In this document: positions 1,603-64,000 of the stretch, one piece after another
Layout of the letters: each line of letters opens with the position of its first letter
Position numbering within the stretch: the stretch's first letter is position 1
IMG/VR virus record: IMGVR_UViG_3300028048_000092
Coordinates: 42,680 to 106,679 of that record
Direction: 5' to 3' (one strand)
From: a virus
Lineage: Duplodnaviria > Caudoviricetes
Length of the DNA: 64,000 bases
Made by a program: the position numbers and the translations under genes
Notes under the pieces: model-generated
What the model saw: the letters and a program-made list of their open reading frames with translations, nothing else
What the model was told of the DNA's origin: nothing
The model's database searches: none

Positions 1603-2079
1603 TCAGATTACTGTATAGAACATCAATCCCTGACTGAGCTATGTGAGTTTGTTCTAAGTCTCTTCTTTAGTATAATAGTTGCTTAGAGATATGGAAAATG
1701 AGTTTGACAGCTATGCCAGTTTTTCATCTACCTAAATCTTTGTATAGTAGTCAGAAAACTTTTCTTTGATACTACTTAAAGAGTTAGATATCTCACTTAT
1801 AATATCGTTTATCTGTTCTATAGTATAATAGTCTTGAAAACGACTCTGTAATTCAGACAGAGAGTTTGAGATATCTGCCAGAAACTGATCTATTTCATTT
1901 TTTGTATAATAGTTGCTGAGATCTGTCTGGGGAGGGATCTCTACTACGTTACCGTTGGGCAGCTTTGCTTTCTGCTTTATTGCGCCGTTCTCTATTGTTT
2001 TATAAACAAGAACTGTTCCCTGCAATATATTCGAGTTAGCAAAAGAGCTGTCGGATTCTATTTTCTATACTCTGGCCAT
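1603..2079 (-). CDS. YYTK-repeat coiled-coil tail fibre-related protein (TAG=Glu, 158 aa)
   Basis: ATG 2079 to TGA 1603 reading through TAG; repeats YYTKNEID / YYTKI*VD / YYTKEET; AKLPNG shared with gene at 16428. Confidence 0.75.
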
Positions 2080-2144
2080 TTTTAAGTCCTTATCTAGTTC
2101 ATATAAGGGTACTTGGTAAAGTGTATAAAGACCTTGTAAAAGAG

Positions 2145-2176
2145 CTAAAAAACAGGCCCTTTTTTGGCATAATAAG
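2145..2176 (+). promoter_or_regulatory. putative phage promoter CTAAAAA-N13-TGGCATAATAAG
   Basis: Same two boxes with identical spacing at 4027-4058; both lie at the start of transcription units. Confidence 0.6.
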
Positions 2177-2267
2177 TTGAAGGAGATTACAAGGTTGTAA
2201 TCTTAAAAATTTAATCCTTCCTGGACAACTGTCCAGTTTCTTTAATGCCATAATAAAGGAAGTTAAA

Positions 2268-2639
2268 ATGGCACTTTAGAAAATCAGTTCGGTGAGAGCA
2301 GCCGCTCTCCTCGTCGCCACTGCAACCAATGTCTCCGATTTCAAGGACTCGAAAGAGTACCTGTTACAGGAGATATAGAGAGCGATGGTAAAAGGAGATT
2401 CTCAACTGGGAGTATATGAGTAGGCTGTAAAAGGCCTGCTCTTGTAGTACCCGGGAGAGGATAAGGAAGCTCTCACTGAACAAGTGATAAACCGTCTGTA
2501 GAAGGACTTACCGAAGTTCTATCAGAAGTCCTTGAAAGTCTATAGATGGCTCAAATGGGGGCTGCTCCCCGGAATGGCTTTAGCCTTTGGCTGCGGGATC
2601 CTGTGTGGATTCTGCTGCAAAGGGTTGGGGCTGTTCTGA
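2268..2639 (+). CDS. hypothetical protein with C-terminal membrane anchor (TAG=Glu, 123 aa)
   Basis: RBS AAGGAAG, ATG 2268, five in-frame TAG, TGA at 2637-2639; absent from the standard-code track. Confidence 0.7.
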
Positions 2640-2781: not shown

Positions 2782-2844
2782 CGCGCTTTTTCCTTAAGAG
2801 GGCCTCTTCTATTTTGTTTTTCTTTTTATTTCCTTATTGTTTTG

Positions 2845-3611: not shown

Positions 3612-3693
3612 GGGGCTGAGAAAAGTTTCGACAGCATGGAAAGCCAAAGTGCACCTGTCTGGACCCCCGGGGCAGTACCGGGCAGCTCCACCA
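3612..3693 (+). ncRNA. minimal tmRNA-like RNA (tRNA-like domain only)
   Basis: 5' GGGGCTGA...TTCGAC, 3' GGAC-CCCGG-GGCAGTA-CCGGG-CAGCTCCACCA; Ala-type G3.U70 acceptor stem; encoded CCA; no tag ORF. Confidence 0.8.
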
Positions 3694-4673: not shown

Positions 4674-5891
4674 TTATTTTAGAGGCTTGAAAGAAGGTAC
4701 CTTTTTAATAGTGCGGATCACCTGCTCCCCGTAAATGCCCATTGTACATTCAAACTGCCTGGGAGTGCCTTTGTATTTGGGACACCATAAGTAGTCCTTA
4801 TGATCGAAGTTGAAGCGCTTGTCATCCCAGCACCCATTGCACACATTGTAATTTATCACTCTGTAAGGAGTATAAAACTCGCAGGAAGGCAAGGAGAATC
4901 CTGAAATAAGAACTACAGGCACCCTGCAGCACCATGCCAGCCAGGACATCCCTGATCCAAGTCCTATAAAGAAGTCGGCATCTTTTATAAGGTTTATCCT
5001 CTATTGCAAAGGCAAAGCTCCCGTAGCGTCCTCCACTCCCCAGGGAACATGGTTCCATATAAGTCCATTCCCGTAGTTTCTATCTTTGTTTATGCAGTAG
5101 ACCTTATATCCCTCTTCTTTAAGAAATCTTATGACAGAGTCCCATCCACAGGGATTGTTCCAGTGCTTTGTCTGGGAGCTTGCCTGTGTGGATATGACAC
5201 AGTACTTCTCTTTTATCTTTCTTTTTGCGGAAAGGTCTACTCTCGGTGGAATATCTTCATCCGATACATCAAGTATATGTGCAGCTGTCTTATGCAGTCC
5301 GACTTGTCTGAAGTCAATAGGCTGCCACTAAGTGTTCCCTCCGAAGAACAGCCCCATGTAGTAAGTAGCATAAGGCTTCAAATCAATGTTCTCTTTAACA
5401 GAATAAAAATAAATATCGGGATACTGCTTCTACAGAAGCTCCTTTATATGGCCTGGCATAATGCAGTGCAGTCTGCAGTGATGCTTCTGCTGGAATCTCT
5501 ATACATAAGAGAACCATCCCAGAGTATCTCCTATGGCGCCGTCGGGGAAGTTTATCACAACGTCCTTCTGAGAAGCATCGTAGGTATGGGTAAAGAGGAT
5601 CTCTTTCCTGTCAGGGGAAAGTATCTGCAGCTTATAGTTGATGAAGTACATTTTGCTGCTGAACACTTTTCCACCTGCTTTTACAAGCCCGTTGTAGAAG
5701 ACCGTCCCGGTGTCCTGATCTGTAAGGGTGAACCAATGGTCTCCGCTGTCCTTGGGGAAGCTTATTCTAAGTCCCTTGTTGAAGTCATATTTAATGCCCT
5801 CTACAGCTTCCATGGTAAACTGGGAAGGTACCTGCCAGTACACCGGAGGTTTTACAATAGGTGCAGGGGAGAGGGAATCGGAAGTCGACAT
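4674..5891 (-). CDS. TibC/Aah-like autotransporter O-heptosyltransferase (TAG=Glu, 405 aa)
   Basis: GIKYDFNKGLRI, GDTLGWFSYV*RF, QPIDFRQVGLH, PLQ*RINL, FIGLGSGMSWLAW, CNGCW...CP...FEC cysteine cluster; standard-code pieces 5499..5891 and 4674..4949 are in one frame. Confidence 0.9.
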
Positions 5892-5987
5892 ATAAAGGCT
5901 CCTGTTTGATGTTTTGCTCTAAGTGATGTATACAAGGAATATACGCATTCGCGTATAAGTATAAAGGAGAAAGGGAAAGTAGGGCTT

Positions 5988-8900
5988 ATGGCTGACAGCA
6001 GCTTCTGGAATATAGGAAATATAGAATATCCTGTAATACAAGGACAAGCGGGAAAGCCCTTCTACCATTAGCAAGGTCCTCTCATACAGTTCGGGTAGTA
6101 GCTGGTCGATAACAGCTGCCTTTGCAAGTACAGATATGCAAGGTACTTTGCTTACTACTGTGCAGTTCCTTCAGACAGCTCTTCCATAGCCTTTTTCAAG
6201 AACTTCGAGCAGGTTCCCTGGGAAGGGGGGCATAATATAAAGTTCCTTGATTATACCCAGGAAACAGCCAAAGGTTACCAATGGGGAATGTTCAAAGGAC
6301 CTGTATATCTGGGCTGCTATCCAACGGGTCACTTTACTACAGGGAAGTGGCTTCCGGTGGAGCTTCCCTATGAGAATGTTTCATAGGACCTTAATGTAAC
6401 TTCTCCTTCTCCTTATTATATATATTAGGAAAATGAGGACTACAACTACTCCTTGAAGTGCATGATAGTAAGTTCCTATTAGTGCTGCAATGGGGAGGAG
6501 GGCTGTGGAGTAGAAGTACAGAGAGGCTAGTACTTTGAAAGCTCTTTCCCATTCTGCTATGCATAGTTCTTTGTAAGTAACCTTGATGCAAGCGATGCTT
6601 CTCAGGTAACAGCTGCTCTTATAGAAGGCTCCCAGGGATGTGTATGCACTCCTCCTTACAGGATGCTTAAGAAGTTCTAGCAGTACGATTGCTCTACAGC
6701 TACTATAAGGGTATTCAAGTAGATGGTGCTTCTTCCAGAAGAACTCGACAGATGCTCTTAGTTCTGTCCCTCCTGCCAATAGGAGCTTCCTGCTTTAGCT
6801 CCCAATGCTGCTTTTTTAGCTAAGAAGGATTGTGTTTATTGGGTTTTATGGAAGTTCCCCCTTCCATAGGACTGCAGTGATTGTTCCAAGACTTTACATA
6901 AGATATAGTGGCAGTTGGTAACGGATTATAAAGATATCCCCGGGGAAGTTGTAGGGAAGGGGCCTGGGTGGAAGCCCCTGAGTTTCCATGATCCTGACGA
7001 GACCTTTACATACTGTGAATAGGAAGCTCCTGGAAAAGTCATCTTCCAGTGGCAGTATGTAAGGAATCCTCAGCCTTCCCAGGGAGAGATATAGGGCAGC
7101 CGCCCCGCTGTAAAGCCCGATGAAAACCCCTGCAAAGAATACTGCAGGAAGAACCCTCTGGCAAGGCCCTCCATATCAGACTCTTTGTCAGGTGCCTCCG
7201 ACAGTACTTTGTAGAAGCACTTTCCCTGCAATGAGCCCTAGCCTCCTCCTATGAAGTACAGAGAGTTCCTCCATACTGAGTTTGATGTATATGAGCTGTC
7301 ACTTCGAGTTACTGTCATTACAAGAGATCAGGTGAAGGAGTGCTATCAGAGCTATAAGATAGATACTCCCTTATAGGACTGGCATTGGAATCTTATTTAG
7401 AATGCTGTCTATGATTATCAGCTTACAAGCTACTTATATGGTACTTCCTTTCGGGGGACTGAAGTAAAGAACGGCTTTATCCATAAGTATGTTGTGCAGT
7501 TACATGGAGAAGAGCCTCCTGAAGATCCTTCCGGGGAGTATCAGGGAGACGACTTCGACATAGTAGCTGATGGAAGCTCCTACAACTTTGTCGATAAAAG
7601 TCAGAACCTTTGTCAGTATGCTTATCAAGTTTATTTAGCAGAGAAGTGTAAATGCTTTGGTGATTGTATTTCAGACTCCCGTTCCTGCAGCACATCAAAT
7701 CAGAGTGAATATATAAGTGGCTGGGGGTGCTCCAAATGGCAAAGTCTTGGTCAGCATTCTTAGTATTAGATAAGAAAGGAAATGCGGTTCTGCCTGGATA
7801 AGTGGAGCCGGAACCCGGAAGAGTCTGTACACAAGTAGTGGGTTTATACTACTTTGTCTGATGATCCTTATTTCTGTGAATAGTATCCCCAGCCACTTAA
7901 AAGGGGGATTATCTACGATAACTATGTATTTACACCAAACTGTTCCGATTCTACAAGTATAGTGGTATCTTTCCCTTTTGTTTCTTATCCCTGGTGTGGA
8001 AAACAGCCAAAAGCTTATTAGGGATATAAGGCATAGGACAGCCTATCCAGCTCCACTTTACTTCAAGTAGTGGACAATGTAATAGATCTTACCAATACAG
8101 ATCCTCCGATATGTACCGTATATGGATTTATTGATCCTCACAAGGTGGCGGTTTGGCCAGGGTTTATTTCAGAGCGGCCTGTGCGACCAGCGCCTTGCTG
8201 CGGAGAAGAGGCCTTCTATTCCGATAGCTGTCATGCTAAGGGCAAAATTTATTAGCCTCCCATTATAAAGTGGCCCAAGTCCTGTTTGTAGCTTCCAGCG
8301 TACGGAGTGAGAGTTTATATAGCTGCTTTTGGACATGCCTGGCCTGGGTTCATTTCCACGTAGAAGACCGTTGATTCCCAGACTAAGTACTATGTAAATG
8401 CTTCCAAGTTCCTGCAGTACTTCAACTGTACCAAGCAGTCTTAGCTGTAGTTCTATTAGGAGCTCCCATCGTAGTACCCTGAAGGATGGGATCCGCCTTT
8501 CTCAGGCTTCTATCAGACCGATTATCTTCCTGCAAAGGGTAACTGGTGCATGCCTCCCATAGGCTTCTTCAACTAGCTGTCCCCTGTGAACTTCAACCAG
8601 GGCTCTATAGCTTAGTGGGCAGGAGGTTCGGGAAAAGTCCTTTTGTATATATTCTCCGGGCATGCTTCCCGCTGCTAGTCACAGTTAGAGGTCGGCATAA
8701 GAGCACTTGCAGGGAAGAACATCGGCGGCAGAAAAGCTATAGGCGTCTAGATCCCCCTTAACAAGAAAGGGGCAGGAGATAACGGGACCATAGCATATTC
8801 TTATGATTGTGTTGATGTCAATCAGTTTATAGATCCCAATAGTGAGTACTATCATAAAGGTGTCTTATAGAGAGCCTATGAGAATCAGGATATAACAGGG

Positions 8901-10154
8901 TTCGTTGCCAATGGGTTTGTAGATGGTATAGATGCTTAGCTCTGCAATCGTATAGGAGGAAGCTTCCCCGGAGGAGCCTGCAGCAATGTGGAAAAGTTCC
9001 TGAATGAGTAGGAACTTCGTTAGCTGTTTGGTTCTGCTGCTGCAGGAAACTGGAACTCTCATTTCTTCACTTATGCTGATTTGAACTATCCGAAGAGTCC
9101 TTTCGGAAAAGCTTGCGCAGACAGTTATATAGGTGTCTCCGGGAGGACTGGGGGCAAAAACGCATCTTCACATGATGTTGCGCTGCTGATGCGGATGCAA
9201 AAACTGCCCAAGGCAGCTTCCAGGACAGCCTGGTATATCCAGAACTGCTATGTGACCTTTTATGACTAGGATGATGGATCTGAGATCCTTCCCGGCTGGC
9301 CCTACAGGGTGTATGATCAAGCTGTTGACTTTGGCTATTCTTTTTGTGTGGAAGGCTCTCCTTCCCAGATAACTTATCTTATAAATACGACAGAGAGCTT
9401 TACACCCTCTGATTAGGATGTATTTGCCGCGCTTATTAATGGCTCAAGAACTACATTCCACATATAGATACCTCCTTATCTGGCAGGAGAAGGGCTCTCT
9501 CCAACGGATCTTACTAGAAGTACTTTTCAGCTTGTATCTGTAAGGGACAGCAGGAAGTGGCTGAGCATTTCTGCTTCCACTTGGGATGGACGTTGCTATT
9601 TGGATGCTTACGGCGGGCTGCAGGTTACTACTGCAGATAACGGAAGCACTACTTGGAATTGTGAAACGCAGACATGTTATTGGGGATAGCAAACTACAGG
9701 AGATTGTGTTATTCCCACATTGGATATACTGCCCCACGGGGATTGCGATACAGAAACAGGTACCGTAGGCAGAAGCGGCTTTGGCAGATACCGCAGCCTG
9801 CTTAAAAATGCTTCTGACTCCGGTTATGCTCTAGTAAATACTTCCAGTATGCGTTTCTGTGATCTTCCTTAGGGGGTTTTTGCTGCGTTTCTTATAAGAG
9901 CCTTAGACAATTGGTACGACTTTCCAAGCAGCTATGCAAGGGTCTGTGATCAGAATTATTATAGAGCATCCAAAGATTGTATAGTCATACCTGTTCCCGC
10001 TAATCTTGAGGAGGGCGACTAGTATACTCTCAGTATAACTCATGATCTTTCAGATAGCACCACTTATGAATAGGAAGGAGATACTAGTTATCGTAAGTGC
10101 CATGTATAGATATAGCAGAAGTTCATTTTCCACTTGCCGACATAGTGGTACTGA
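5988..10154 (+). CDS. very large Cys-rich protein, probably structural (TAG=Glu, about 1388 aa)
   Basis: ATG 5988, fragments 7494, 8070, 9081 and terminal TGA 10152-10154 share one frame; dozens of TAG; not checked codon by codon. Confidence 0.65.
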
Positions 10155-12448: not shown

Positions 12449-13984
12449 ATGTCCAATATTCAGATACACTCTTATACAGGATAGGATCTATATCCCCGTA
12501 TCAAGACCAGCAATGTTATAAATGATGCGGGCTTTTTAGCTGTTTCCGATTCAGGCTCATAGGGAGCTATACTGCTGCTTACTTCATAGGGACCCAGGTG
12601 GAGTAAGCCGCAGTTTATATCCAACTACATAGAAATAACTTCCGTATCCGATTCAAAGATCTTTTTACAGGGAAGCAATATTCCAGTGGGAGTGGAAACT
12701 TCCCTTGGCAATTACTATCCTATTTAGAAGCGATCCCTTGTCATCGACTCCGATTCCATACAGATAAGTATCGATCCTTATCTTGCTTATGACGGGACAG
12801 CTTCTTTTGTTCCTCCCTGGAAGGTTTGGTTTTCCAGTGCCCCGGTCATTGTGGAGGGAGGAGCTTCCAATACACAGAAAATAATCAAGTTCCCAGGGGG
12901 TGCTTCAGGGTGGGCCTTCAAGCCCCTTCCCAATAGAGTCTATTATTATGATCTTATAGACAGCATTTCCGATTCTCTTGAAATAGACTTTCAGACAGCC
13001 GCCTTTTCCGATTCCACTTAGCAGTTCAACTTTGAAATGCAGATCGTACAAGGCGCTGTATATAATAGTAAAAATCTTATATGGAACACTTAGAAGGAGC
13101 TTCTGTGGAAAGCAGGAAGCACCTTCTCAAGTTCCAATTCAGCACCTGCTTTGGATTTGAAGGCACTGCACTGTTTTGACTTCAGGTGGGACGGTCAGCG
13201 GCTGCTCGGAGAGATGGCATACAAGATCTCCGATGTGGGTGCTTAGCAGAAGCCTCTAAGGCTGACAGCACAGGCTGCAAATTCTTCCGTTACACTCAAT
13301 TGGGTGGACTCTTCAGGAAGTGTTACTCCTCAGGCAGAGCTTTATTACAGAACAGCAGGAACTTAGTGGACTTCTTATACAATAGGAACTTAGCTGCAGC
13401 TTACTTCTACAGGAGACTGGGTGTAGTTCTGGAACAGCGCAAACAAGTTCTCCTATTCCACTGCAGCCTATTATCAGTTTGCCATGCAGGGTGTTATTGC
13501 GGCTTCCGGGAACATCATGTCCCTGCTGAATTATGGAAGTATGAAAGGGGCTGCTTTTGCATACTTGTTCAATGGTTGTGATTCTCTTACAACTGCTCCT
13601 GAGCTTCCTGCCACTGTCCTAGCGAGCAGCTGCTACTTTGCGATGTTTCGTACCTGCACGTCTCTTATTGTTGCACCTGTGTTGCCGGCATCTGTCTTAT
13701 ATAATAACTGTTATCAGTCAATGTTCCGCGGATGTACTTCTTTGACCGCTGTTCCATTGCTGTTTGCCAAGGCTCTTGTAAAAGGATGCTGTGCTTATAT
13801 GTGCTATAGCTGTACTTCTCTAAATGCTGTAACAGTTGCGTTTGACACCTGGGAAGACAATACCACTACCAGCTGGTTGTCCACTGTGGCCGCTTCAGGT
13901 ACCTTCACTTGTCCTTATGGGCTGTCCGATGAAGTGAGAGATACGAGCCATATTCCTTCCGGATGGACCGTTGTAAGAGTTTGA
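12449..13984 (+). CDS. fibre/adhesin with C-terminal BspA-type leucine-rich repeats (TAG=Glu, 511 aa)
   Basis: LTTAPELPATVLASSCYFAMFRTCTSL repeats; N-terminus paralogous to 14057. Confidence 0.75.
12491..12559 (+). repeat. 69-nt exact duplication (second copy 14102-14170)
   Basis: TATCCCCGTATCAAG...TCAGGCTCA identical; next codon is TAG here and GAA in the copy. Confidence 0.9.
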
Positions 13985-14056
13985 CAATATGAGCAATATG
14001 TATATACTATCCCAGAAAGATATTCTTCGGGCATTCATTGAATAAGAGAGGCATAG

Positions 14057-15970
14057 ATGTCTAATAACATACAACTACAGTCTATTTTCGGGAAGCCTTT
14101 GTATCCCCGTATCAAGACCAGCAATGTTATAAATGATGCGGGCTTTTTAGCTGTTTCCGATTCAGGCTCAGAAGGGCAGTTCCTGATACAGACTGCGGAA
14201 GGACCCAAGTGGGTAACTATATAGCAGTCGCAGCTGTAGTCCAATTACAGATACTTCTCTCAAGCCCCTCAAAACCTTGTTACTTTTCAAGGGCTGAGCA
14301 TTCCGGTTGGGGTAGAGGCACCTTCCGGCAATTATTATCCTGTTGAAAAGAACTCTTTATCTATAGGTTCCAGCAGTGTCACCCTTGACATCACTGCCTA
14401 TCTTGCTTATTAGGACACGCCTTCTATCAGCGGGCTTTGGAGAGCGTGGTTCTCCTCGGGAGGCACGCTTTCCGACAGCTTCTCTTTGAGTGACTATTAT
14501 ACCAAGTCTCAAGTGGATGAGCTTATTGCAGGGAACATTACGGAACGTACAGCTTTTGTGCCCTTTTCCAGTGTTACCAACAATAAAGTGACCTTTACAG
14601 GCTGCGGCATTCCTACCGGGGTGCTTACTCCTTCAGGCAGCTATTACAGCATATAGAAGAGCAGTGTGGAATATAATAAGCAGCTTGGCAGGACTGTATT
14701 GGATGTTTCTGCTTATTTAGCTTATTAGGACATGGCTTCTTTTTCAGGTACCTGGACAGCATGCTTCCCTACAGGTATAATAGGAAGCAACAGCAGCGGG
14801 TACTATACCAAGCAAGAGGTGGATGACCTCTTTGCACAGCTCTCAGACAGTATCCAGAATACTTATTACACTAAGAGTGAAGTAAACGGCTTTATCGATG
14901 CACTGTCGGACTCTATAGACGCAGTGAATACCAAGTTCTCCAGCTATTACACCAAGAGCGAGATGGATGAGAAGCTGCAGCGTAATAATATGCCCATCGG
15001 GACTATATTCTACTATCCTTCTTCAGTTCCACCAGAAGGAGCGTTTTTGTTGAATGGGCAGGTAATTTATAATTGCAATACACTATATCCCGATTTTTGG
15101 GAGTGGCTTGTTACAAATATTTCTGCAAGTAATATAAGGTCGTTGTCAGCTTCTTCTTATTAGGCATAGTTATCATCTAGAGGATTTTGTGGGGCGTTTA
15201 CTGTTAACAGCAGTACAGGCGCTGTCAGACTGCCTTGTCTTACAAATGCTTTTATACAAGGAAATGATAGTAATATTGGAGCTTCTATCGCTCCAGGCCT
15301 GCCGGATATTCAAGGTGAACTGCAGGCCACTTATTCAGTTTTCCGTGGAAGTGCTTCAGGTGCGCTTACCTACGCAAGTACCTAGACGCAGCTGTCGTCT
15401 CCGACTTTCCCGCAGACAGCTGTTACACAACGAGTAAAGTTTAAAGCAAGAAATTATAATACTATCTACGGCAATTCAACTACAGTACAGCCCCCTGCCG
15501 TAAAGTACTCTGTCTGTATCCAGGTATTCAATACTGCCCTGTCTCTCTCCAATCAAGTTTCTGCGCAGCTTGCTACAGAGTTGCAAAGCAAGGCCGGGAT
15601 AAACGCAGAGAATTTCACTGCGACAGGAAAAGATAGCCTAATCAACATTATGTCTGATTTTGCCCCAACTCAGGTCACATCTGTTGCTGCATTGAATACA
15701 TATTATACAGCCACCAAAGCTGGAATTTTGTATGCTTCTTTTACAAATAGTGTAAATGCTACTACAGATTGTTATATTGTAGCTGCAATAACTGAACCCA
15801 ATGTTACTACATCTTATTATTACTCTGGAGGATATGTAGCTGCCAGTCACACTCAAAGACATAGCCTGTTTATACCGAAAGGACAGCGATATAGGGTAGA
15901 CGCAGGCAATGCAAATATAACCTGGTCTGCTTTTTTTATCCCCCTTAGAAACTCCATAGCAACCAGCTGA
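14057..15970 (+). CDS. tail fibre protein (TAG=Glu, 637 aa)
   Basis: YYTK repeats; MPIGTIFY..PEGAFLLNGQ collar-like domain; GLPDIQG, IYGNSTTVQPPAV; fragments 14732 and 15581 in frame. Confidence 0.85.
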
Positions 15971-19508: not shown

Positions 19509-19795
19509 TGAGCGGGACACTGGGAGCGATTCGCCGGGAACGGCAAAGAAGGGAAGAAGTTCTCCGCAAGGCTCAGGCGGAAGCCGATAAGCGGCAGTCT
19601 CTTGAGCTGAACCGCGAGGCTGTCATTGCGGAGATTTGCGAGGCTTTCGGCTGGACGGAACTGGATGAGTTCGCCCGGAAGATGATCGATGACGCTTTCG
19701 CCGGGCAGCTGGTAGACGTGAAGCAACTAAAAAAAGACCTTGCCAAGTGGAAAGAAGAACAGGAGCATCCGCAGGAGTCTCCGAAGGAGGAATAA
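19508..19795 (+). CDS. hypothetical protein
   Basis: Coupled ATG; Glu-rich yet TAG-free; higher GC than neighbours. Confidence 0.65.
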   Translation: MSGTLGAIRRERQRREEVLRKAQAEADKRQSLELNREAVIAEICEAFGWTELDEFARKMIDDAFAGQLVDVKQLKKDLAKWKEEQEHPQESPKEE

Positions 19796-19796
19796 C

Positions 19797-21215
19797 ATGC
19801 CACTGTATCATCACCAGGTTAGCACTTCTGATGTATATGTACCAACAGGGAAAACCATGCCTACAGGGGCAGTGTTCTATGCGCCGTTATCGTCTGCGTC
19901 TGCGACGGCAGCGACCGGGCAGACGTTAACGGCAAAAGGGACTGCTACATATCAGAATCAACAAGGCATCAACTGCGTTTATTTTAATGGAAGTTCTTCA
20001 TATATTTACATCCCTGAAGCCCTTGCCGATACCTTTCCTGGGTTAAGTTCCAAAGATACCTTAGCTTATTGTTGCTGGTTCAACACAAAAAATAAAAATG
20101 CCGGCCAGGAGATAATCTCTTGTACAGAGGGTGGGGGGTTTAGTATTGGATTAAATTCGGACGGCAATTCGGGTTATATGCATATTTATGTGATGGCAGG
20201 TGGTTCATATTTAAATGAGAATATTTGTCCCATTTCCAAGGTAAAACAGGATCAGTGGATGTTTATATGCGTTAATTATAACGGAAGCACTGTTGATGTA
20301 TATTTAGATAACGAGAAGGTAAATTCTTTTAATAAAACTGGGAATCTTGGCATGCCGAACAACGCTCCTTTGGCGATAGGAGCAGAAAGCGCGGATCTAT
20401 CTACGACGTTTTCTTCTGATTGTTTCAATGGTTATATATCTTCCGTGCGCGTCTACGACCGTGCCTTAACCCAATCGGAAATTACCACTCTATCGCAAGA
20501 GTTTGCCCTTGCCGTGGAGACTTCCGGCTTCGATGAGCTCGGCCATCCGGTGCAATATGATTCTGCCTTTGATGCTGGGTGTTCACTTTCTTACAGCTGG
20601 GTAGACGAGAATACAATATTATATATTCCTATGTATGGTAATTCTCCTTTTACCGATAAAAGTCAGAATCAATATTCAGTAACGAACAATGGTGTAACTG
20701 CTGTGACTAATGTCGCACCTCCTTCAGGAGGAACAGGGGCTGGATACTTAAATTCAACAAACCACTATCTATATACAGGAATTAATATCCTCAACGGTCT
20801 GACTACTTTTACGCTTGAGTTTGATTTCAGGCTGACACAAATCCCCAGCGGGGGAAATGACTGGGACGACGGCTATTACTTCGCTGCCAACGGGAATAAT
20901 TACGACAATCCAGGATGCGACATGTATTTTGGAACCTCTCAGATTGTTCTTAATTTTGACAACTATAATAATCGGGTTGGAACTTCTTATACACCCGATA
21001 CGAATTGGCACAACCTTAAGATAACACGAGATTCATCTAATCTGGTATCCGTTTACATAGACGGCGTATTAATAAACAGCTATACCCGTTCCAATAGTTT
21101 TTACTCTGGTTCGTATGGCTTCGCGATCGGCAGAGTAGAGCCGCAGGGAGAAACCGGAGGTGCTGGTTTCCATGGGTATATAGCAAACTACCGAATTTCT
21201 AATATTGTGAGGTAA
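19797..21215 (+). CDS. double LamG domain adhesin
   Basis: Two LamG-like domains (FNGYISSVRVYDRALT; FHGYIANYRISN); RBS GGAGG; no TAG. Confidence 0.85.
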   Translation: MPLYHHQVSTSDVYVPTGKTMPTGAVFYAPLSSASATAATGQTLTAKGTATYQNQQGINCVYFNGSSSYIYIPEALADTFPGLSSKDTLAYCCWFNTKNKNAGQEIISCTEGGGFSIGLNSDGNSGYMHIYVMAGGSYLNENICPISKVKQDQWMFICVNYNGSTVDVYLDNEKVNSFNKTGNLGMPNNAPLAIGAESADLSTTFSSDCFNGYISSVRVYDRALTQSEITTLSQEFALAVETSGFDELGHPVQYDSAFDAGCSLSYSWVDENTILYIPMYGNSPFTDKSQNQYSVTNNGVTAVTNVAPPSGGTGAGYLNSTNHYLYTGINILNGLTTFTLEFDFRLTQIPSGGNDWDDGYYFAANGNNYDNPGCDMYFGTSQIVLNFDNYNNRVGTSYTPDTNWHNLKITRDSSNLVSVYIDGVLINSYTRSNSFYSGSYGFAIGRVEPQGETGGAGFHGYIANYRISNIVR

Positions 21216-21220
21216 ATATC

Positions 21221-48000: not shown

Positions 48001-51000
48001 AGGTATGGATATGGATACCAAGCTGGGCAAGCTTCTTGGTACACAGTGGGCTCCGAAGGCCGGTATGGTAAAGGCTGTTAGAGAAGATCGTATAGATATG
48101 CTCTATGATGACGGTACTACAGGAAGTGTTCCTCTTTATAAGAACTTCCCGGCCAACGCTAAAGGGTGGCTGACCAATTATCCCAAGGTAAAAGCAGGAG
48201 ATAAAGTTGCTTAGGGGCAGCTTCTGGCTACATCCAATTATACGGATGATAATGGAGTGCTTGCTATGGGAAGAAACCTCAGGATGGCTTATATGAGCTA
48301 TCATGGAGGTACCTATGAAGATGCTACTACTATTTCCGAGTCTGCTGCCAAGAAGCTTGGTTATACTACCATGTACAAGACAGACATGGATAAGGATAAG
48401 AATATAAGAACCGCCAAGCATCTTTATACTACATGGAAGCCCGGACAGTACTCAAAAGAGCAGCTCTAGAATCTGGATGATCAGGGAGTTGTAAAAGTCG
48501 GGGCTACTCTGCATAAGGGAGATCCTGTGATTCTTGGCATACGCACTACAGAGCCCTCTCCGGGGACACTTGGCAAAAGGATCCTTTCCGATGTTACTTA
48601 GGTGTGGTAGCACGCCAACCCAGGGATAGTTACAGATGTCGTAAACGGAAAGAACGGTATCAAGGTCTTCGCCACAGTAAGCAGTCCTCTCAGAGAAGGA
48701 GATAAGCTGACACAGCTCTATGGCGGGAAAGCAACTATCGCACAAATTATTCCTGATGAAAAGATGCCCAGAGATGCTAAGGGAAGGCCGTTAGATCTTT
48801 TGTTCGATCCTCTAGGAATTGTAAGTCGCTGTTACGATGTGTAGACGGAATTTCTTACTAGATAGGGATGGAAACTGGGTAAGGATGTAAAGGGTTCCGA
48901 TGAGCTCCTTAGTTGGGATCTCAAAGCAGAAGGCTTCTCTTATCTGCCACAATAGTAGTCTTTCTATAAAAAGGAATATAAAGGCACCATGTATAAGGCC
49001 TCTAATAAGGAGGTTTAGCTGCAGGTGACACCTAAACATAGAGTGGCCTATAAATGGCCCGGCTAGGATACAGTCAGATAGGGCTTTATAGAGGATATCT
49101 GCGGAAAGAGCTGCTATCTCCCCAAGAGAGAACTTATTAACGGTAAAGAAGAAACCAGTTGGCAGCTTATCAGAAGTACTGACTGGTCTTAGGTAGATTA
49201 TGAAGGCACTGTTTATTGTCCTACAGTAAGTACTGGATATGTTCTTACCAGAAGGAACGGCAAGTAGATAGTAGCACATAACACCAATCCTTCCCAAATG
49301 ATGTAGGCAGGGCTTGGCAAAGTTGCTATGAAGACAGGCACTCCTATTGTAGTTCCTGCTTTTATGCCCAAAGGACAGTCCAGGTTAAAGTATGTAAAAG
49401 ATCTGATGAAGGCGAATAATGTTCCCTGGAAAGAGGATGTCTATGATCCCGATACTGGAAGGACCATTAAGAATGTCTTCACAGGTGTAATGTATTTCCT
49501 TCCCTTAAAGCACATTGCAGATACTAAAATGTCTGCAAGAGGAACTGCACAGTACACCGCTTAGCAGGTTCCCATGGGAGGCGGATAGTAGGGCTGCTTC
49601 CCAGCGATGCAAAATATTATAACCTTGCATGGGGAACAGAGTATTGCACATATTTGTGAGAAGAAGATTCCTGAATATGTGATGTCTTGGGACTAGGAAC
49701 GTAAAGAATGGCGCTGGAAGCAGATCACTGACTGGTTCACTTACAGATCTAAAGTATAGAATATCCTCAATATCTTTACAGAGAACTCTCTCAGTACTTA
49801 TGGTGGTAGGAATAAAGTAAAGCATACCAACTCTTCTTATCCCACTAAGAACCATAAGATGTATATGGCGGATGGTTCTATAAAGCTTGCAGGAGAGCTT
49901 AAAGTAGGGGACTACTTGGCTGGTATTGGTTGCCAGTATACCGAGGATCAGCTGCAGGCTCTTTATGGTACTCTTATGGGAGACTCCAGTAGAGACTCAC
50001 AGGGTGGTATCCAGTGTATGCATTCTGTAAAGCAGTCTGCTTATATCAATTACAAGAGAGATATCTTTGCGGCTGTTGGTGCCAGTAGAGTAAGTGACCC
50101 CAAAGAAGTTAAGGGCGGTGTAATGGGCAGAGATGGGGTTTGGAAGGAGTATAAGCCTACAGCTGCTATCCGTATGCAGGTTCCTAAGAGCTATTATGTA
50201 TAGAAAGCCCTTTAGCTTACTACAGATAGTGCAGGAAAGAGACATCTCACTGCTCCTGTGTTGGAAGCAATGGGAGAGTTTGGGTTCTGTTTGTGGTTCC
50301 TGGATGATGGTAGTATAACCAATCAAAGAAAGCCTACACATCACATAGATCAGCCATAGGCTAGAATAGCTACACACAGCTTCTCTGTAGAGGAAGTAGA
50401 AGAAGCTGCTAAATGGTTATAGAAGAATCTACTTCATGTAGAAAATGGTACTCATATAACTATCTATAAAGGAGTATATGATCAGGATCAGCCTTGTTTG
50501 AATTTCCATAGGAACGCTAGTTGGTAGATTGCAAGAATAATTGCTAAGCACATTCCTTGGGAAGTTATTCCTGATTCTAAGACATGGTTGAAGCAGTACT
50601 GTAAAGGGGTCCAGGAAAAGACTCCCTGTGTAAAACACAACTTTAGGAGTCCTCTTGGTATAGTGCCATTGAAGATCAAAGAGATCAAGCCCTATAAGCA
50701 CGACAAGCCAAATGTGACTGAAGTCAATGTCTATGATTTTACTGTGGAAGACACTCATAATTATACACTTACAGGCGGTGTAAGAGTGTCTAATTCGAAG
50801 CGCATTGGCAATTTAGAGGTCAGTGGTCTTGCAGGCCACAACGCTTTCAACTTCCTCCACGATGCCAAGCTTATAAGAGGACAGGCCAACAGTGACTTCT
50901 GGCGCTCCATAAGAACAGGCCAGATCCCTACAGTCCCCGGAGAACCTCTTGCCCATAAGAAGTTCTTTGCACACCTTCAAGGCTCCGGTATGCAGATAAA

Positions 51001-54000
51001 GAGAGACAATTAGGGCTTCACCATCTTTGCTCTCTCCAATAAGGATGTAAATGAACTCGCAGGCTCCAGGTAGCTTAAATCCACAGATACTTACTAGCAG
51101 AAGAACTTCCGCCCCATAGCAGGGGGACTTTTCGGCTAGGACATCTTCGGTCCTTAGGGAGATAAATGGGCTTACATACAGCTCGACAGTCCTCTGCCGA
51201 ACCCTGTGATGGAGGAGCCTCTTGCAAGACTTCTCGGAGTCTCCGATACTTAGTTCTAGCAGATAGTCCGTGGAAAAGGCACTCAGAAGGGACTTCGCAA
51301 TGCTTCCGATATGAAGAAGGTTCTCTCCAAGATGGACCTCTAGAGGGAAGCTACCCGTGCCCTCATGGACTTTAAGACCAGTACCAAGTCCCGTAAAGAC
51401 AAGGCTCTGAAGAAGTATGTAGCTATAGCAAGGATGAGAGACGCCGGGGTACGCCCATAGGAGTACATGCTCGACAGGATCCCGGTGCTTCCTCCAAAGT
51501 TCCGCCCGATAACCTCCCATGGAGGTCTTACCATGGTGGCTGACAGCAACTATCTCTATTCCCAGCTTCTTAATGCAAGGGACGATTTGAGGGCTGCAAA
51601 GGATCTCCCTTAGGAGTACCAGGAAGAAGGGCAGTCAAATCTCTACCAGAAGTGGAAAGAGCTGGTAGGGCTGTACGATCCAAGCGATGTGAAGTTGAAG
51701 GCCAAGAATGTAAAGGGGCTGCTGAAGTGGGCGCTTGGGAAGAGTCCCAAGTATAGCGGATTTATGCAAAAGGTCCTTGGGAGCACAGTGGATACGGTTG
51801 GAAGGGGAGTAGTTATTCCCAGTACCAAGATAAAGTTGAATGAGATCGGGATGCCTGTATAGATGGCATGGCATTTATATTCGCCATTTGTAGTAAGGAA
51901 GCTGGTACAGCAGGGATACACTCCAGTGGATGCTATGAAGCAGGTCAAAGAGAAGCGCCCAGTGGCGGAGGAAGCTCTTTCTGAGGCTATTAAGGAAAGA
52001 CCTGTGGTTATGAACAGAGCGCCATCTCTGCACAAGCTGTCTCTTATGGGGTTCAATGTGAAGCTCACTAACGGGCACGCTCTGAAGGTAAATCCTTCAA
52101 TAGTAAGTCCTTACGGAATGGACTTCGACGGGGATAGCATTAAATCGTTGATTTCCATAGACTTACGACGTGAAAATCTGCCAAATATAGCAAAATGGCA
52201 AAACAATGTCGATTAGAATTCGGACTTGACAAATAAAAAAGATGGATATAGATTGTTTATGAAAGAGGAAAAAGGTACCTCGAGTAATAACAAGTAGAGA
52301 AAGGAACAATCTATGTTCAGCAAAAACACCAAAATGGAACTTGTACAGACTGTAATGGAACTCTCTGAGCTCCCTGTTGTAGAAGGGTCTGAAGTCAAGA
52401 AATCTGAAACAGTAACTGAGTGGGATGTAAAGGAAGGGACCTATACTAGTACCATTGATCCGGTCACTGGAGACATCGTCTATGCACCTATTACTAAGGT
52501 CTCCAAGCATGAAAATTTGAAGATGTTTGATATCAAGCTCGCTATCAGCTCCTCCTATGACCACATGGTCACAGCCTCTGAAGACCACAGCCTGATTACC
52601 CTTAATCCTATGACACTGGAGCTGGAGAAGACTCGCCCGGAAGACTCTAAAGGGCGCTGCGTTCCTATGACCAGACATAACAAGGGCAACTCTGCTAGAG
52701 AAAATGGACAAGGCATTTGCACTGAGCTGCACTTTCCCTCCGGTACTTATCAAATGTCCTACGAAATGGGACTTTTCCTAGGTCTTATGGTAGGAGATGG
52801 ATGGGTATCCCGTCTCGAAACCTCTCCCATAATTCAAGTTGCTTGCTGCGAACCTTCTTTGCAAGAAAGAATAAAAGAGCTGTCCAAGAGTGCTAATATG
52901 CCCTTTACCAAGGAAGCTTCCTTCGGTAGCTATGAAGCAGATGAACAGAGATTCTCCAAGGATAATATGCAGCGACTTACCTTCTTTATGGATCAAGACG
53001 ACAAGCGCTATATAAATGATCTCATTGGACACGGTGCTGAGAATAAGAGAATCCCGTATCCCAGTTTTATGTCCAGCAGGACACACATGCTAGGCGTGCT
53101 CATGGGATTACTGGCCACAGACGGTGTAGTTTCTCACAGGCCTCCAACTAAGGGTAAAAAATCTCCCTGCAAGAGTATTGCCTATCATACTGTCAGTCCT
53201 GTTCTTAGAGATGGGGTACAGGAACTTGCTCATAGACTCGGAGTAAAAACTTCTGTCACTAATTATATAGGTACAACATCTGGTAATTTGACCTATATGG
53301 TTAACTTCTGTCTTGAGGATATGGTTCGCCTTTATGATAGTAATAAAGCTCGCTTTGTTGTACCAGTATCTTATAAGCAGGAAGCTATGGAAAGAATCGC
53401 AAGAGATTTCCACGATAATATGAAAGCAGACTGTAGTAAAACGTGGACATCTTATGATATTGTTCCTTTCCCCAGAGGTGTCTTCTGTGAGTTTAGTTGG
53501 GCAAAAATAGAAAGTCTAGCCAAAGACGTTGTAATTAAAGGCAGAGGAAAAGGCTTTATTAAACGGTGCGTTGCGAAGAGGATTGCGGATGCTCTTGAGA
53601 GACGTGATTGGAGTATTTATAAAGATCCTACATATATCAAAACTTCAGATCGTACCCACCACACCCCCGAAGAAGCCCTTGCTCTTGTGAACAAATGGAT
53701 CTCCATGGTCCGCAACGAGGACATTGGCTGGGAAGTTGTGGAGGATGTAACTCCTTCCACTTGCACTGAAGGCTGGGACTGCACTGTGCCAGGGCCCTAC
53801 ACTTTCTCCCTTTCCACAGGAACTGTTGTACAAGACACCGTAAACATCCACGTCCCTGTCTCCAAGAAGGCTGTACAGGATGTACGCTAGAAGATGATGC
53901 CCGAAAGGAACCTCATTTCACTCCGCAAGGGCAAGATTCTCTACGGGCCGTAGAAAGCTTATACACAGGGACTTTACGTAGCTACCAGAATGGGGGACGA

Positions 54001-54100
54001 CAAGGATGTAAAAACTTTTGCCTCCACAGCAGACGCCCGCAAGGCCTACCTGAAGGGCTAGATCGATATAGACACTCCAATAGTGATAAAGGAAAAGTAA
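45008..54100 (+). CDS. RNA polymerase beta(C)-beta'(N) fusion precursor with five inteins (TAG=Glu, 3030 aa)
   Basis: All track fragments 45194..52313 share one frame; beta motifs RIGEGGL, GYVDPVR/TA*, LLMG/S..QAVPL, GRNL..YEDA, GDKL, PDEKMP, LKH..KMSARG, RIGNLE; beta' motifs GLFG*DIFG, IPVLPPKFRP, NRAPSLH, DFDGD. Confidence 0.92.
45539..46600 (+). mobile_element. intein 1 with LAGLIDADG endonuclease
   Basis: CYDDKTEI...FWCGN/T; FMGWYLSEGS and FVDAILKGDG. Confidence 0.9.
46934..47926 (+). mobile_element. intein 2 with degenerate endonuclease region
   Basis: CHHPETPI...TSAEHKW...ANGIITHN/S within LLMG/SK. Confidence 0.88.
48830..49282 (+). mobile_element. intein 3, mini-intein (151 aa)
   Basis: CYDV*TEFLT..GW, VTPKHR, VYCPTV, RRNGK.IVAHN/T within PLGIVSR/TN. 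Confidence 0.88.
49595..50794 (+). mobile_element. intein 4 with LAGLIDADG endonuclease
   Basis: CFPAM...TKNHKM, LYGTLMGDS, WFLDDGS, VYDFTVEDTHNY..VRVSN/S. Confidence 0.88.
52136..53836 (+). mobile_element. intein 5 with LAGLIDADG endonuclease, Ser start and Asp end
   Basis: Inserted at DFDGD/TVNIHVP; TASEDHSL, LGLMVGDG, MGLLATDG, GWDCTVPG, GTVVQD/T. Confidence 0.85.
52226..52254 (+). promoter_or_regulatory. sigma70-like promoter inside intein 5
   Basis: TTGACA-N17-TAGATT, followed by AAGGA RBS and in-frame ATG at 52313. Confidence 0.55.
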
Positions 54101-56680: not shown

Positions 56681-56681
56681 T

Positions 56682-59616: not shown

Positions 59617-59617
59617 T

Positions 59618-60265: not shown

Positions 60266-61179
60266 TGCCTATACATCAAAACGAAGACGGCACCTGGCAG
60301 TGGGGTAAGTCAGGTAAGAAATATAAGAAGAAAGAAGACGCCATCAAGCAGATGAAAGCGATCTTCGCTAACGGCTATGTAGAGAAACATGCTTCTTATA
60401 CTGATACTTTGAATAACTACAGAAAGTTCGGGGATCCCAGTGCTTTTATTTCTACTGTAGCAAGACAAGACCCTAAAAACTTTAGCGCAGTAGTTCCTTC
60501 TGTAGAAAACATGTTGGATCCTTCTTACAGGGAAAGAAGTTTCTTGTGGAAAGCACAGGGTATGGACTTTCCCTGGGTAAGAAACAAAATGCTGCGTGAC
60601 GGATACTTCAAAGCTCTGTATCAAAGAGAGTCCAGTAATAATCCTCATATGCTTATCAGAGATAAAAATGGGTAGATCGTCTCCGCCGGTATAGGGAGTG
60701 TGGATAAACCGGGGCTGAAGCAAATGAAACAGATGAAGTTGGTCCCACAGAACTTTAAAATGGTAGACTTCATTAAAGATAAAAACCAGGGACTTGTAGA
60801 CAAGGCTATTAAGGGTCTCCAGACCAGGTTCTTTAATAAGGAATAGATAGGAAACTCTCCCAATAAGCTAAGAGGTTTGTCTTTCTTCAATCCTGCAGAT
60901 GTCCGTTAGATGTATATTAGATATAATAACGGTAGAAAGACAACTAGAAAGATACAGAATATAGATAAGAAGATTGCCAGAGGATAGCGGATCTCTCCCT
61001 ATGAGCAGTCCTTGCAGTACTTTGCACATCGTAAAGATAACCTATATGAAAAGGACTTTAAAAATAAAAATCCTCATTTATATCCTTTAGTGTATCCATA
61101 ATATTCTGACGATCAGAGCTTATACAAATAGCTATTAATTAAGAAAGGCCTTTCTTATGAGTTTCGAAAACATCTTTAA
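60265..61179 (+). CDS. hypothetical probable virion protein (TAG=Glu)
   Basis: MPIHQ..WQWGKSGKKY..A.KQMKAIFANGY module followed by EKHA; in-frame TAA at 61177-61179. Confidence 0.65.
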
Positions 61180-61993
61180 ATCTATTAATAAAAAGGCTGC
61201 TGAAATGCTTACCCCTGAAGCACAGCAGGCAGCTGTACAGCCTCCGCAAGATCCCGCTATGGGAGCTATGCCTCCTGGAGCTCCTATGGATCCGGCTATG
61301 ATGGGAGGTGCCCCTGCAGGCGCTCCTCCGATGGATCCTTCTATGGGTGGAATGCCTCCGCAAGGCGCTCCTATGGGACAGCCTGGTGCCTGGATGCAGG
61401 ATCAGATGTTCTTGCAGTTCCTCCAGAGCATGGGTGTCCAGGTGCAGCCTGACGGTTCCGCTATCGATCCTAATGGACAGCCTGTTCCTCCTGAAATGAT
61501 GGAACAGATCTATGCACAGTTCCAGCAGGAAATGGCTATGCAGCAGGGTGGTGGAATGCCTCCTGAAGGAGCTCCTGCAGAAGGGATGCCTCCTGAAGGT
61601 GTCCCTATGGGACCGTAGGGAATGCCTCCGGAAGGTGAGATGCCGCCTCCTGGGCTTGATGAAGAGACTCTCAACCAGGTTGCCGGTGTTGTGCAGCAGG
61701 TTGTCGATGCTACTGTGGAAGAGAAAATTGCAGCCCTTGACAAGAAGCTTACCGCTTTTACTGACAAAATCGATGCAATCAAGATGCTCCTTGACGACTT
61801 CCTTACAGATGCTTCTCATACAGAGAAAAAAGAAGCCGAGGAACAGGCGGCTATCGACGAGGAGCTTGAAAAGGATCTTAAGAGCGCCCAGGAAAGCGCT
61901 CCTGTTGATATTCAGCCCACAGAAGCTGCTCTTGCAGCTCCTCAGGCAGCTCCCGCAGGTAACATGCTCGATATTATGAGAGGTAATGTATAA
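61157..61993 (+). CDS. Pro/Met/Gly-rich low-complexity protein (TAG=Glu)
   Basis: MSFENIFKSINKKAA leader; repeats PEGMPPEG with one copy P*GMPPEG. Confidence 0.8.
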
Positions 61994-63054
61994 TGGATAA
62001 GAAGGCGGATTGGAAGGAGAGCTTGAAAGAGGCTCTCAAAGACAAGCGCCTTCTTGGTGCTGGTCTTGCAGGTCTTGCAGGTGCTGCTGTAGGCGGAGGA
62101 GTTCTTCCCGGGCTGATTTATAAGAAGCCCACTTGGGGAAGTAGATTCTGGATGGGAGGCGCTTCGGGTATCTCTACATTCCTTATTGCCTTGGCCGCTA
62201 TGCAAGCTGCTGGAAGCAAGAACTAGGACAAGAGCCTTGCTGGTAAGGGCAAAGATGCTCTAGCTACTGGAAAAGCATTCTTATAGTCCACTTTTGGTAC
62301 AGATAAGTCTAAAGCCTAGCTTAGAGACATGGGCGAAGGTTAGAAAGCTGTCTGGGGACTTCCCGGAACAGGAGTTCCTGGCTGGCTTGCAAGAAGATGG
62401 CATGAAAGTAAACCGAAAGGTTTCTTATCCGCAGCCTCTGGACTGGTTGTTGGCGGGTATACTGGAAGCAAGCTTTAGCGAATGGCTTAGAACTGGAACA
62501 GAGCGAGCTCTTTCAGAAATATTATTAATAATATGACTTCAGAGCAGAAGAACCAGCTTATTAAGCAGTTCCCAGATATCGCTAAAGTGCTAGATCACCC
62601 AACAGGGGTTATTGATACTACTAAAGATGCTGCAAAAGCACTTTTTGCCAGAGCTAATTCCAGTGTTCTAGATACCAAACTAGGTCAACGTCTTTTGAAG
62701 GCTCCTAAATTTAGAGCCTGGTTGCAGAATCAGCGTATGACCAATCCTTTCCTTTTCACAGCTGGAAAGAATAGTGCAGGACAGATTGCTAATAATGTTC
62801 TGGGAAATATCGCTAAGGACAACATTATTCATGCTGATGGCATGTAGGCTCTGCGTGGTTTGGCTACACTGCCTAAGAATCGCTATCAGCTTCCTGCTGC
62901 TAAAGGATTTGGTAAACTCCTCAGAGGCGGCCGTAGAAGCATTCCTATCCTGCTCGCCCTTGCAGCCAGTTATGGTGTAAACCGCCTTACCGGCGATAAT
63001 AAATCTTATAATGATCTGATTTCACAGGATCTTCTTTCCGATCTGAATAAATAA
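61993..63054 (+). CDS. probable virion protein with Gly/Ala helices (TAG=Glu)
   Basis: Pieces 61993, 62533, 62860 in one frame, joined only by TAG. Confidence 0.75.
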
Positions 63055-64000
63055 TGGCAGTAACTACTCTAGGACGTGAACTGGTAAAGCAGGCACTTCC
63101 TGCTAAATACAAGAGCTTTGCCGATGAGCCTTTAACAGCTGATCGGCAAAAGAAGCTCTTTACAGCCCTTGCCAAGGAAGACCCTGATGCTTATATAGAC
63201 ATTCTTCAGAACATGAATGCCATTGGAGAGCGCGTAGTATCTACTTATGGAAAAGATACTACTATTACTCTAGATGACCTCGATGCGGGTGCTTAGGTAA
63301 AGAATGTCAGAGCGAAGCTCAATGAGATCATAAGGGCTACTATAAACCGTAAAGATCTTACTCCTTAGCAGAAACAGTAGAAGATCATTTAGCTGGGATA
63401 CAAGTACACAGCTAAGATGAAGGACCTGGGGCTGCAGGATGCTAATAAGAGACGTACAGGGCTTGCCAATCAGATAGCTTCCGGCTCCAGAGGAAATCCT
63501 GTCCAGCTTATGCAGCTTATTACAGGTGATATGATGATGAAGGATGCCATGAACAGAGACATTCCGTTCCTGGCTACCATGCCTTATGTGGAAGGCGATT
63601 CTCCTTTGGCTTATTGGGCTTCTGCAATGTCAGGCAGAAAATCTACTTACGATGTACAGGCTGCTACGGGCCGTGTAGGATATCTTTCGAAGCAGGCTAC
63701 CAATACCACTCACAGTACTCCTATAAGTATGCAGGACTGTGGCACAGTAGATACAGGAGTTCCTGTAAAGGCTAATGATTCATAGAACATTGGAAGCGTT
63801 TTGCTGTATCCCTGGAAAGGACATAAAGCAGGCTCTGTTGTAGATGAGCAGATGCTTTCTGAGGCGGATGATTAGGACTAGTTTATCATTCGCAGTCCTG
63901 TTACTTGTAAGGCACATAATGGAGTTTGTGCCAGATGTGCAGGAATACAGGAAAATGGGAAATTCCCTGCAATAGGTTCTTATGTAGCGCTGAACTCTGT
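63054..64000 (+). CDS. RNA polymerase beta' C-terminal fragment, runs off the window (TAG=Glu)
   Basis: SGSRGN..QLMQL, YVEG.SP..YW..SGRK..D...T...GYL, DCGT, IRSPVTC....GVCARC.G. Confidence 0.88.

Follow-up and report, generated by a model that had tools for sequence, protein, structure and literature searches.

What amino acid, if any, is specified by the TAG codons that run through most of the genes of an uncultivated tailed phage? The question is raised by a window of 64,000 nucleotides, positions 42,680-106,679 of the linear 106,679-bp IMG/VR virus record IMGVR_UViG_3300028048_000092, for which an initial annotation made from the sequence had proposed that TAG is read as glutamate, a meaning that would be new for phages. 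The analysis described here leads to much the same answer, namely that the window holds the block of late genes of a tailed cattle-gut phage, and that in this block TAG has been reassigned from stop to glutamate, and as a whole this reading is given a probability of about 0.88. The record has a G+C content of 43.6% and an estimated completeness of 57% (CheckV), 43% of the genome being missing, and the sequencing-run index gives bovine gut samples as its source. The nearest named phages, Salmonella phage Arash and Vibrio phages, share only about 30% identity with it in the polymerase.

That TAG is a sense codon is near certain. When open reading frames (ORFs) of at least 100 amino acids were called over positions 1603-64000, coverage was 0.62 under the standard bacterial code (code 11), 0.70 with TGA and 0.77 with TAA taken as sense, and 0.95 with TAG taken as sense. 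There are 376 in-frame TAGs, distributed over 47 of the 56 ORFs, and the ORFs stop at TGA (29) or TAA (26) and never at TAG, whilst in-frame TAA and TGA are absent, though both are common off frame. It is because coverage rises from 0.62 to 0.95 only with TAG read through, and because the stops are TAA and TGA only, that TAG is taken as sense, and on in-frame TAGs, stops and coding density alike the initial annotation was borne out. From its start to about position 44,000 the contig has almost no in-frame TAG, TAG is unused there as a stop as well, and the recoded part extends from 44,282 to the end; a complete relative (G001) has the same layout of a TAG-free block and a recoded block. The pattern is thus that of a stop-codon-recoded phage, with coding density recovered only by TAG read-through and a standard-code-compatible block beside a recoded late block. 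Two metatranscriptomic libraries from a separate study yielded contigs identical to the window over 56286-62588, a stretch spanning at least 57 TAGs, and since such libraries may hold DNA this identity excludes sequence error but, strictly, not RNA editing. Among the sequencing runs, X1 has a contig of 128 kb, and a 12.7-kb contig of X2 extends beyond the end of the window. The same TAG pattern is found in independent ENA, Logan and IMG/VR assemblies.

The identity of the residue was approached by a number of comparative tests, in all of which TAG was kept as X during searching. Profile hidden Markov models (HMMs) were built from homologues of normal amino acid composition only (97 RNA polymerases (RNAPs), 47 ligase-like proteins and 80 homologues of a conserved 623-aa protein), and log emission probabilities were summed over the columns aligned to each codon in the manner of Codetta. 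Over the 57 TAG columns of the three genes Glu was the best residue, leading Lys by 10^13.8, Asp by 10^15.9 and Gln by 10^21, and after normalisation to background it led Asp by 10^10.8 and Gln by 10^11.5. The consensus residue opposite TAG was E at 31 columns, K at 8, D at 6 and Q at 2, a profile like that of GAA and GAG and unlike that of CAG, so that the alignment of TAG with Gln of standard-code homologues which defines genetic code 15 was not observed. As a control, 55 of the 61 sense codons were assigned correctly; the six that were not (ATG, CAG, CAT, CGA, TGC and TGT) encode Met, Gln, His, Arg and Cys, CGA having been seen at one column only and the likelihood without background correction being biased against the rare residues Met, Gln, His and Cys. 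The three families also agree when taken singly: the 28 TAG columns of the RNAP gave E by 10^7 over D and 10^11 over Q, E was best at the 9 TAG columns of the 623-aa protein, and E occupies the TAG positions 233 and 330 in 45 of 45 full-length standard-code homologues of the ligase-like protein. A profile tabulation of this kind was the check proposed in the initial annotation, and it favours Glu, not Gln.

In a second test the genomes of four standard-code relatives were aligned, and the sense codons in these alignments served to derive the substitution table. Glu was picked with each genome taken singly, by at least 10^4.6 over Asp and at least 10^6.6 over Gln, and the residues aligned to TAG in the four together were E 93, D 58, K 25, N 23 and Q 21. 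(A search of IMG/VR with the RNAP protein alone yielded no close relatives, and those in IMG/VR were recovered through alignment of ligase homologues.) Inside the recoded clade TAG is exchanged with E codons in 27% of cases, D in 11% and Q in 11.5%, which is the exchange profile of Glu codons and not of Gln codons. Pairs of paralogues within the window set TAG against E seven times and against Q once, and in one case the two paralogues are identical over about 70 nucleotides and then differ, one having TAG (12560) where the other has GAA (14171). Glu is thus ahead of Gln by many orders of magnitude in every comparative test, and TAG very probably stands mainly for Glu.

The initial annotation had argued from 13 individual TAGs at motif positions held to be diagnostic of Glu. 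All 13 coordinates are TAG (CTA at the two sites on the minus strand), in frame in long ORFs and with the quoted motifs present, yet as indicators of Glu they are uneven. The ligase sites 57584, 58037 and 58328 have E as the consensus in standard-code homologues, the TibC-like glycosyltransferase sites 5499 and 5001 are E in the relative G002, and RpoB site 49304 is E, whereas 46607 (S), 51137 (Q) and 51458 (variable) in the RNAP are not Glu positions in the phage family. The companion statement that no site demands Gln is therefore only loosely true, 51137 having a Gln consensus. Sites 27101 and 27110 lie in a protein whose FkbM domain is recognised by Pfam (PF05050), the TAG positions themselves having been seen in the sequence, and we take them to be both E positions of the DVEGxE motif of the FkbM family; comparison of this domain with PDB sequences gave no match.

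Codon usage is in keeping with these results. GAA and GAG together (GAR) account for 8.2% of codons in the TAG-free block but for 3.8% where TAG is in use, Gln codons are at 3.4% and 3.6% respectively, and TAG makes up 2.15% of the recoded block; in relatives TAG reaches up to 6.8%, with GAR at 1.6%. The deficit of Glu codons in the recoded block, filled by TAG, supports a reading as Glu. The ligase-like and polymerase homologues fall into two sets, close relatives with 5-10% Gln and 1-4% Glu, and distant ones of normal composition. The database proteins of the close relatives match their DNA only when this is translated with TAG as Gln; the close relatives are TAG-recoded phages that have been annotated with code 15, their Q residues are artefacts, and it is because of this translation that the ligases of close relatives show Q at TAG sites. 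The mistranslation foreseen in the initial annotation has therefore already happened. A filter on the Q/E ratio works for detecting code-15 translations in the RNAP and ligase families and over-filters the 623-aa family, many standard-code members of which have 6-10% Q; since this family is naturally Gln-rich, the ratio alone is unfit for spotting such mistranslation. Gene calling with table 15 would place a wrong residue at about 2% of positions in the present phage and up to 7% in its relatives, catalytic glutamates included, to the detriment of family assignment, structure prediction and metaproteome searches, and for this clade the errors are already in public protein databases.

How UAG might come to be read as Glu is best approached through the relatives. 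The genome G001 is 192,052 bp long with terminal repeats and has 57-68% protein identity to the present phage in core genes, and by synteny the present contig corresponds to G001 from 171 kb onwards, across the genome ends and as far as 75 kb. The only ordinary tRNA genes in G001 are two for tRNA-Met, and directly adjoining one of them ARAGORN, with introns allowed, finds a tRNA with the anticodon CUA, at a locus about 19 kb downstream of the ligase gene and beyond the equivalent of the end of the present contig. Its anticodon is interrupted between U35 and A36 by a 252-nt insert that matches the Rfam group I intron model RF00028 with 31 bits (E 1e-5; below the gathering score of 50), has the conserved GUUCAGAGACUA core and ends in G, whilst the 5' exon ends in a U able to pair with G in P1 (U.G). 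The genome of a 98% identical strain, G006, has exactly the same tRNA(CUA) without the insert, which implies that the tRNA gene is genuine and the insert, a probable group I intron, mobile. Presence and absence of the insert were seen in two 98%-identical strains of one sample (G001 90597-91007, locus L045, and L051 2636-2792), and CCA is encoded in the G001 gene and not in that of G006. The tRNA(CUA) of the relatives forms an ordinary cloverleaf; its T loop is the 7-nt UUCGAAU, it has the pair G1-C72, the discriminator G73 and a pyrimidine-rich 5' acceptor strand, and it is unlike the tRNA-Pyl genes from a metagenome scan. That scan, of Joint Genome Institute (JGI) metagenomes with the anticodon arm of the tRNA, gave tRNA-Pyl and unrelated suppressors, with no member of the clade among the matches listed. 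On several unrelated JGI contigs there are tRNA(CUA) genes whose D arm (TCCTCGGTCGTTCAATGGTTAGGAC...) is like that of tRNA-Glu, and these may belong to other elements in which TAG is Glu. An attempt to establish the identity of the relatives' tRNA from its sequence failed; the best global matches were tRNA-Trp, tRNA-His and tRNA-Gln, and the search pattern had biased the reference set. In a 158-kb ENA relative, the closest to the present phage, the stretch covered, which reached about 19 kb beyond the ligase gene, contained no tRNA. On balance, decoding of UAG by a tRNA(CUA) of the phage is probable.

The TAG-free block of G001 also encodes a compact class I aminoacyl-tRNA synthetase of 356 aa. 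Among NCBIfam models it matches that of glutamyl-tRNA synthetase (GluRS; gltX, E 1.5e-59) better than those of GluQRS (about 1e-31) and glnS (1.5e-5), it matches PF00749 with E 3e-41, and the HIGH and KMSKS motifs (as HIGN and (K)PLSKR) are invariant in 13 members of the compact family. The structural model (mean predicted local distance difference test score, pLDDT, 90.5) has template modelling (TM) scores of 0.82-0.84 to the GluRS of T. thermophilus, T. maritima and M. tuberculosis and of 0.51-0.53 to GluQRS (YadB), so that the modelled fold is that of GluRS rather than of GluQRS or GlnRS. In G001, L204, L206, L207 and L408 the gene stands divergently beside the first heavily recoded late gene and is itself TAG-free or nearly so, and none of five standard-code relatives of 93-100% completeness has it. 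When IMG/VR was scanned with the compact GluRS family G001 was the only close member. A release factor (RF-1-domain) gene was looked for in G000, G001 and G006 and not found.

These observations can be joined into an explanation of how the code might operate. The phage would be a tailed phage of about 190 kb whose early genes, by avoiding TAG, would be readable by an unmodified host, whilst the late genes would need a UAG-reading tRNA charged with Glu and TAA and TGA would stay stops. To judge from its relatives the phage would supply its own tRNA(CUA), the G001 copy mapping beyond the end of the present contig. In at least five related recoded phages the compact GluRS, made from a TAG-free early gene, is predicted to charge this tRNA, a prediction for which the chances seem even, and in the present phage Glu might be supplied by a GluRS gene of its own elsewhere in the genome or by a host enzyme. 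Put at its most specific, and more tentatively, the clade could have a private code maintained by a natural orthogonal pair, in which a suppressor tRNA whose scaffold is Gln/Trp-like and not that of tRNA-Glu, and which in some cases a self-splicing intron would gate, is matched with a miniaturised GluRS that is made before the code switches and that charges without the Glu anticodon.

A number of observations weigh against this explanation. The Glu at TAG is itself inferred from comparison, and a few TAG sites fall at columns with Gln or another consensus. The present contig, at 57% completeness, has no credible tRNA by ARAGORN (default or with introns allowed), Rfam or BLAST with the relatives' tRNA, and no GluRS-like gene was found on it, the syntenic place being held by the TibC-like gene. 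The D and anticodon arms of the relatives' tRNA(CUA) resemble those of bacterial tRNA-Gln(CUG) and tRNA-Trp and not those of canonical tRNA-Glu, and the tRNA sequence alone would not predict Glu. Finally, the compact synthetase scores 202 bits against TIGR00464, below the equivalog cut-off of 290, and its substrate is a prediction.

One alternative is that TAG is Glu by means of host parts only, or of a phage tRNA charged by the host's GluRS, with the GluRS-like gene of the relatives doing some other job such as GluQRS-like tRNA modification. The lack of the GluRS-like gene at the syntenic place on the present contig, the combination of a Gln/Trp-like tRNA body with a G1-C72 acceptor end, and the score below the equivalog cut-off would all fit. 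The amidotransferase GatCAB selects tRNA-Gln by its U1-A72 pair, and in one variant a non-discriminating host GluRS could charge the tRNA, the product escaping amidotransferase through G1-C72. This alternative is nevertheless the less likely one, as it has to contend with the position of the synthetase gene beside the first recoded gene in five recoded lineages and its absence from five standard-code relatives, with a fold and scores nearer to GluRS than to GluQRS, and with the fact that 43% of the present genome is missing. It may also be asked whether decoding is ambiguous, with a mixture of Glu and Gln, or whether TAG is Asp or some other residue. Asp is the runner-up in most tests and a minority residue would escape comparison, but with the background-normalised lead of E over D across the 57 columns never below the 10^10.8 given above, and with TAG at positions where E is invariant, such decoding is improbable. 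The reading as ordinary code 15, in which TAG would be Gln, its meaning in crAss-like and Lak phages, and frequent exchange of E and Q would produce the Glu signal, has on its side the published cases of TAG reassignment, all of them to Gln, the arms that the relatives' tRNA has in common with bacterial tRNA-Gln(CUG), the 11.5% of TAG partners within the clade that are Gln codons and the one RNAP site with a Q consensus. It is very improbable in the face of the 10^11-10^21 by which Gln trails over the profile columns and its deficit against each standard-code genome, of TAG at an invariant Glu of the ligase-like family, of a tRNA(CUA) with G1-C72 and not the U1-A72 of tRNA-Gln, and of a co-occurring enzyme that is GluRS-like and not GlnRS-like; moreover, late proteins would then contain 5.8% Gln and 3.8% Glu, and those of relatives 10% and 1.6%. 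An artefact could come from faults of assembly or sequencing, from editing of UAG to GAG in the RNA, or from decay that has left the genome with many nonsense mutations. We found no point in favour of any of these, and they are extremely improbable, given that only TAG and never TAA or TGA occurs in frame, that independent assemblies have the same pattern and that contigs from RNA libraries, which can hold DNA, are identical at the TAGs.

The features of the window on which these arguments draw, together with their neighbours, are collected in the table.

Table. Features of the 64,000-nt window (positions are those of the window; # in a motif stands for TAG)
Feature	Position	Strand	Basis
End of TAG-free (early) block	1..1263	+	ORFs with 0 in-frame TAG; Glu codons 8.2% vs 3.8% in recoded block
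TAG-recoded (late) block, running off contig end	1603..64000		In-frame TAGs, ORF coverage, stops TAA/TGA only
TibC-like glycosyltransferase candidate, 5 TAG	4674..6074	-	G002 homologue with E, E, D, E at four aligned TAGs; synteny
First large recoded gene, giant 1388-aa late protein, 51 TAG	5988..10154	+	In relatives, compact GluRS gene divergent beside homologue
Paralogous late genes with TAG/GAA exchange	12449..15970	+	Paralogue comparison
Two TAG-free tail-fibre-like genes within recoded block	19740..22435	+	0 TAG in 895 codons; PHROG tail and virion matches
Small HExxH protein, TAG at motif E, 9 TAG in 126 codons	22446..22826	+	Sequence read: TICH#LYH
FkbM-type methyltransferase, FDV#GG# with TAG at two positions	25850..27301	+	Pfam PF05050, E 6.5e-5
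Conserved 623-aa protein, 13 TAG	31661..33532	+	1061 homologues; third profile family
Fused RNA polymerase beta/beta' gene, 3030 aa, 47 TAG, intein and LAGLIDADG inserts	45008..54100	+	Pfam Rpb2_6, Rpb1_1, Rpb1_2, Intein_splicing, LAGLIDADG
LigD-N/ligase-like gene, 436 aa, 23 TAG, only 6 GAR codons	57341..58651	+	Standard-code homologues
GNAT acetyltransferase (21 TAG) and HD-domain (13 TAG) genes, 6-6.5 TAG per 100 codons	58651..60265	+	Pfam matches

Several of these entries call for comment. The two tail-fibre-like genes may have been acquired recently from a standard-code source. The small HExxH protein has no family match. Intein or LAGLIDADG signatures mark three or more inserts in the fused rpoB-rpoC gene, at residues of about 698-973, 1650-1806 and 2694-2760, and the wide spread of RNAP length among relatives (1700-3260 aa) points to mobile inteins. 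In relatives (L005 14172-17147; L003 15988-18948) the ligase gene is followed, after a few kb, by a second large RNAP-related gene (about 990 aa), with weak or faint matches to RNA_pol_Rpb1_5 and LAGLIDADG, whose expected place in the present phage is just beyond the end of the window. At 3612-3693 on the plus strand there is an 82-nt tRNA-like element with an acceptor stem GGGGCUG/CAGCUCC containing G3.U70 and a T arm with the loop GGCAGUA followed by ACCA, and without an anticodon arm; its 3' half gives a weak match to the acceptor piece of alphaproteobacterial two-piece transfer-messenger RNA (RF01849, 20 bits, E 4.8e-4, far below gathering). ARAGORN at a low threshold made four calls of intron-containing tRNAs with the anticodon CTA on the present contig, which are probably noise, there being 208 calls at that setting. 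At 62607-62728 contigs from DNA and RNA libraries of two studies have 120 nt swapped for 108 other letters, probably a strain variant.

The systems with which this phage can most readily be compared are the recoded phages of animal guts. Borges et al. (10.1101/2021.08.26.457843) saw two reassignments only, TAG as Gln and TGA as Trp, in phages with a code unlike that of the host, found phage synthetases rarely and argued that easy hijacking for the charging of suppressors is confined to GlnRS and TrpRS, and taken with Peters et al. (PMC9523058) the phage-recoding literature gives TAG as Gln and TGA as Trp or Gly. In that literature no description of TAG as Glu was found, in agreement with the novelty claimed in the initial annotation, and TAG as Glu would add to the phage recodings in print. 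The code-15 crAss-like, Lak and Garnet phages (10.1101/2021.08.26.457843, PMC9523058) are alike in having TAG as a sense codon in late genes only, standard-compatible early genes, TAA and TGA as stops and an animal gut habitat, and the suppressor tRNA(CUA) is matched by that of the relatives of the present phage. They differ in the residue, Gln there and very probably Glu here, and in that the present phage's relatives carry a GluRS-type enzyme and that a release factor gene was not found. A phage-borne synthetase paired with a tRNA on a Gln/Trp-like scaffold is the probable distinguishing trait of the clade and, if true, represents a route other than the hijacking of host GlnRS or TrpRS.

Outside the phages, TAG is also read as Glu in the nuclear code of peritrich ciliates (NCBI table 30, TAA and TAG both Glu). 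That code is eukaryotic, nuclear and extends to TAA, whereas here TAG fits Glu, TAA is absent in frame and is the stop of 26 ORFs, and the code covers part of one phage genome. The insert in the tRNA of G001 recalls the group I introns in the anticodon loops of cyanobacterial tRNA-Leu(UAA) and tRNA-fMet in its insertion inside the anticodon after a U, its P1 U.G pair, its core and its terminal G, and departs from them in that the interrupted gene in G001 is an amber suppressor tRNA, in the insertion point (U35/A36) and in its strain-variable presence. Amber suppression that inserts Glu is difficult to engineer, since the anticodon is read by GluRS, and for that reason a natural pair of compact GluRS and CUA tRNA would be of interest for engineering of the code. 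Like bacterial GluRS (gltX) and GluQRS (YadB), the relatives' protein contains a class I catalytic domain in which the HIGH and KMSKS motifs are present, and its alignment extends across the entire GluRS fold. It is, however, some 110 residues shorter than bacterial GluRS, the insertion domain being shortened and the helical C-terminal part reduced, it falls below the gltX equivalog cut-off, and it is encoded by phages beside their recoded genes.

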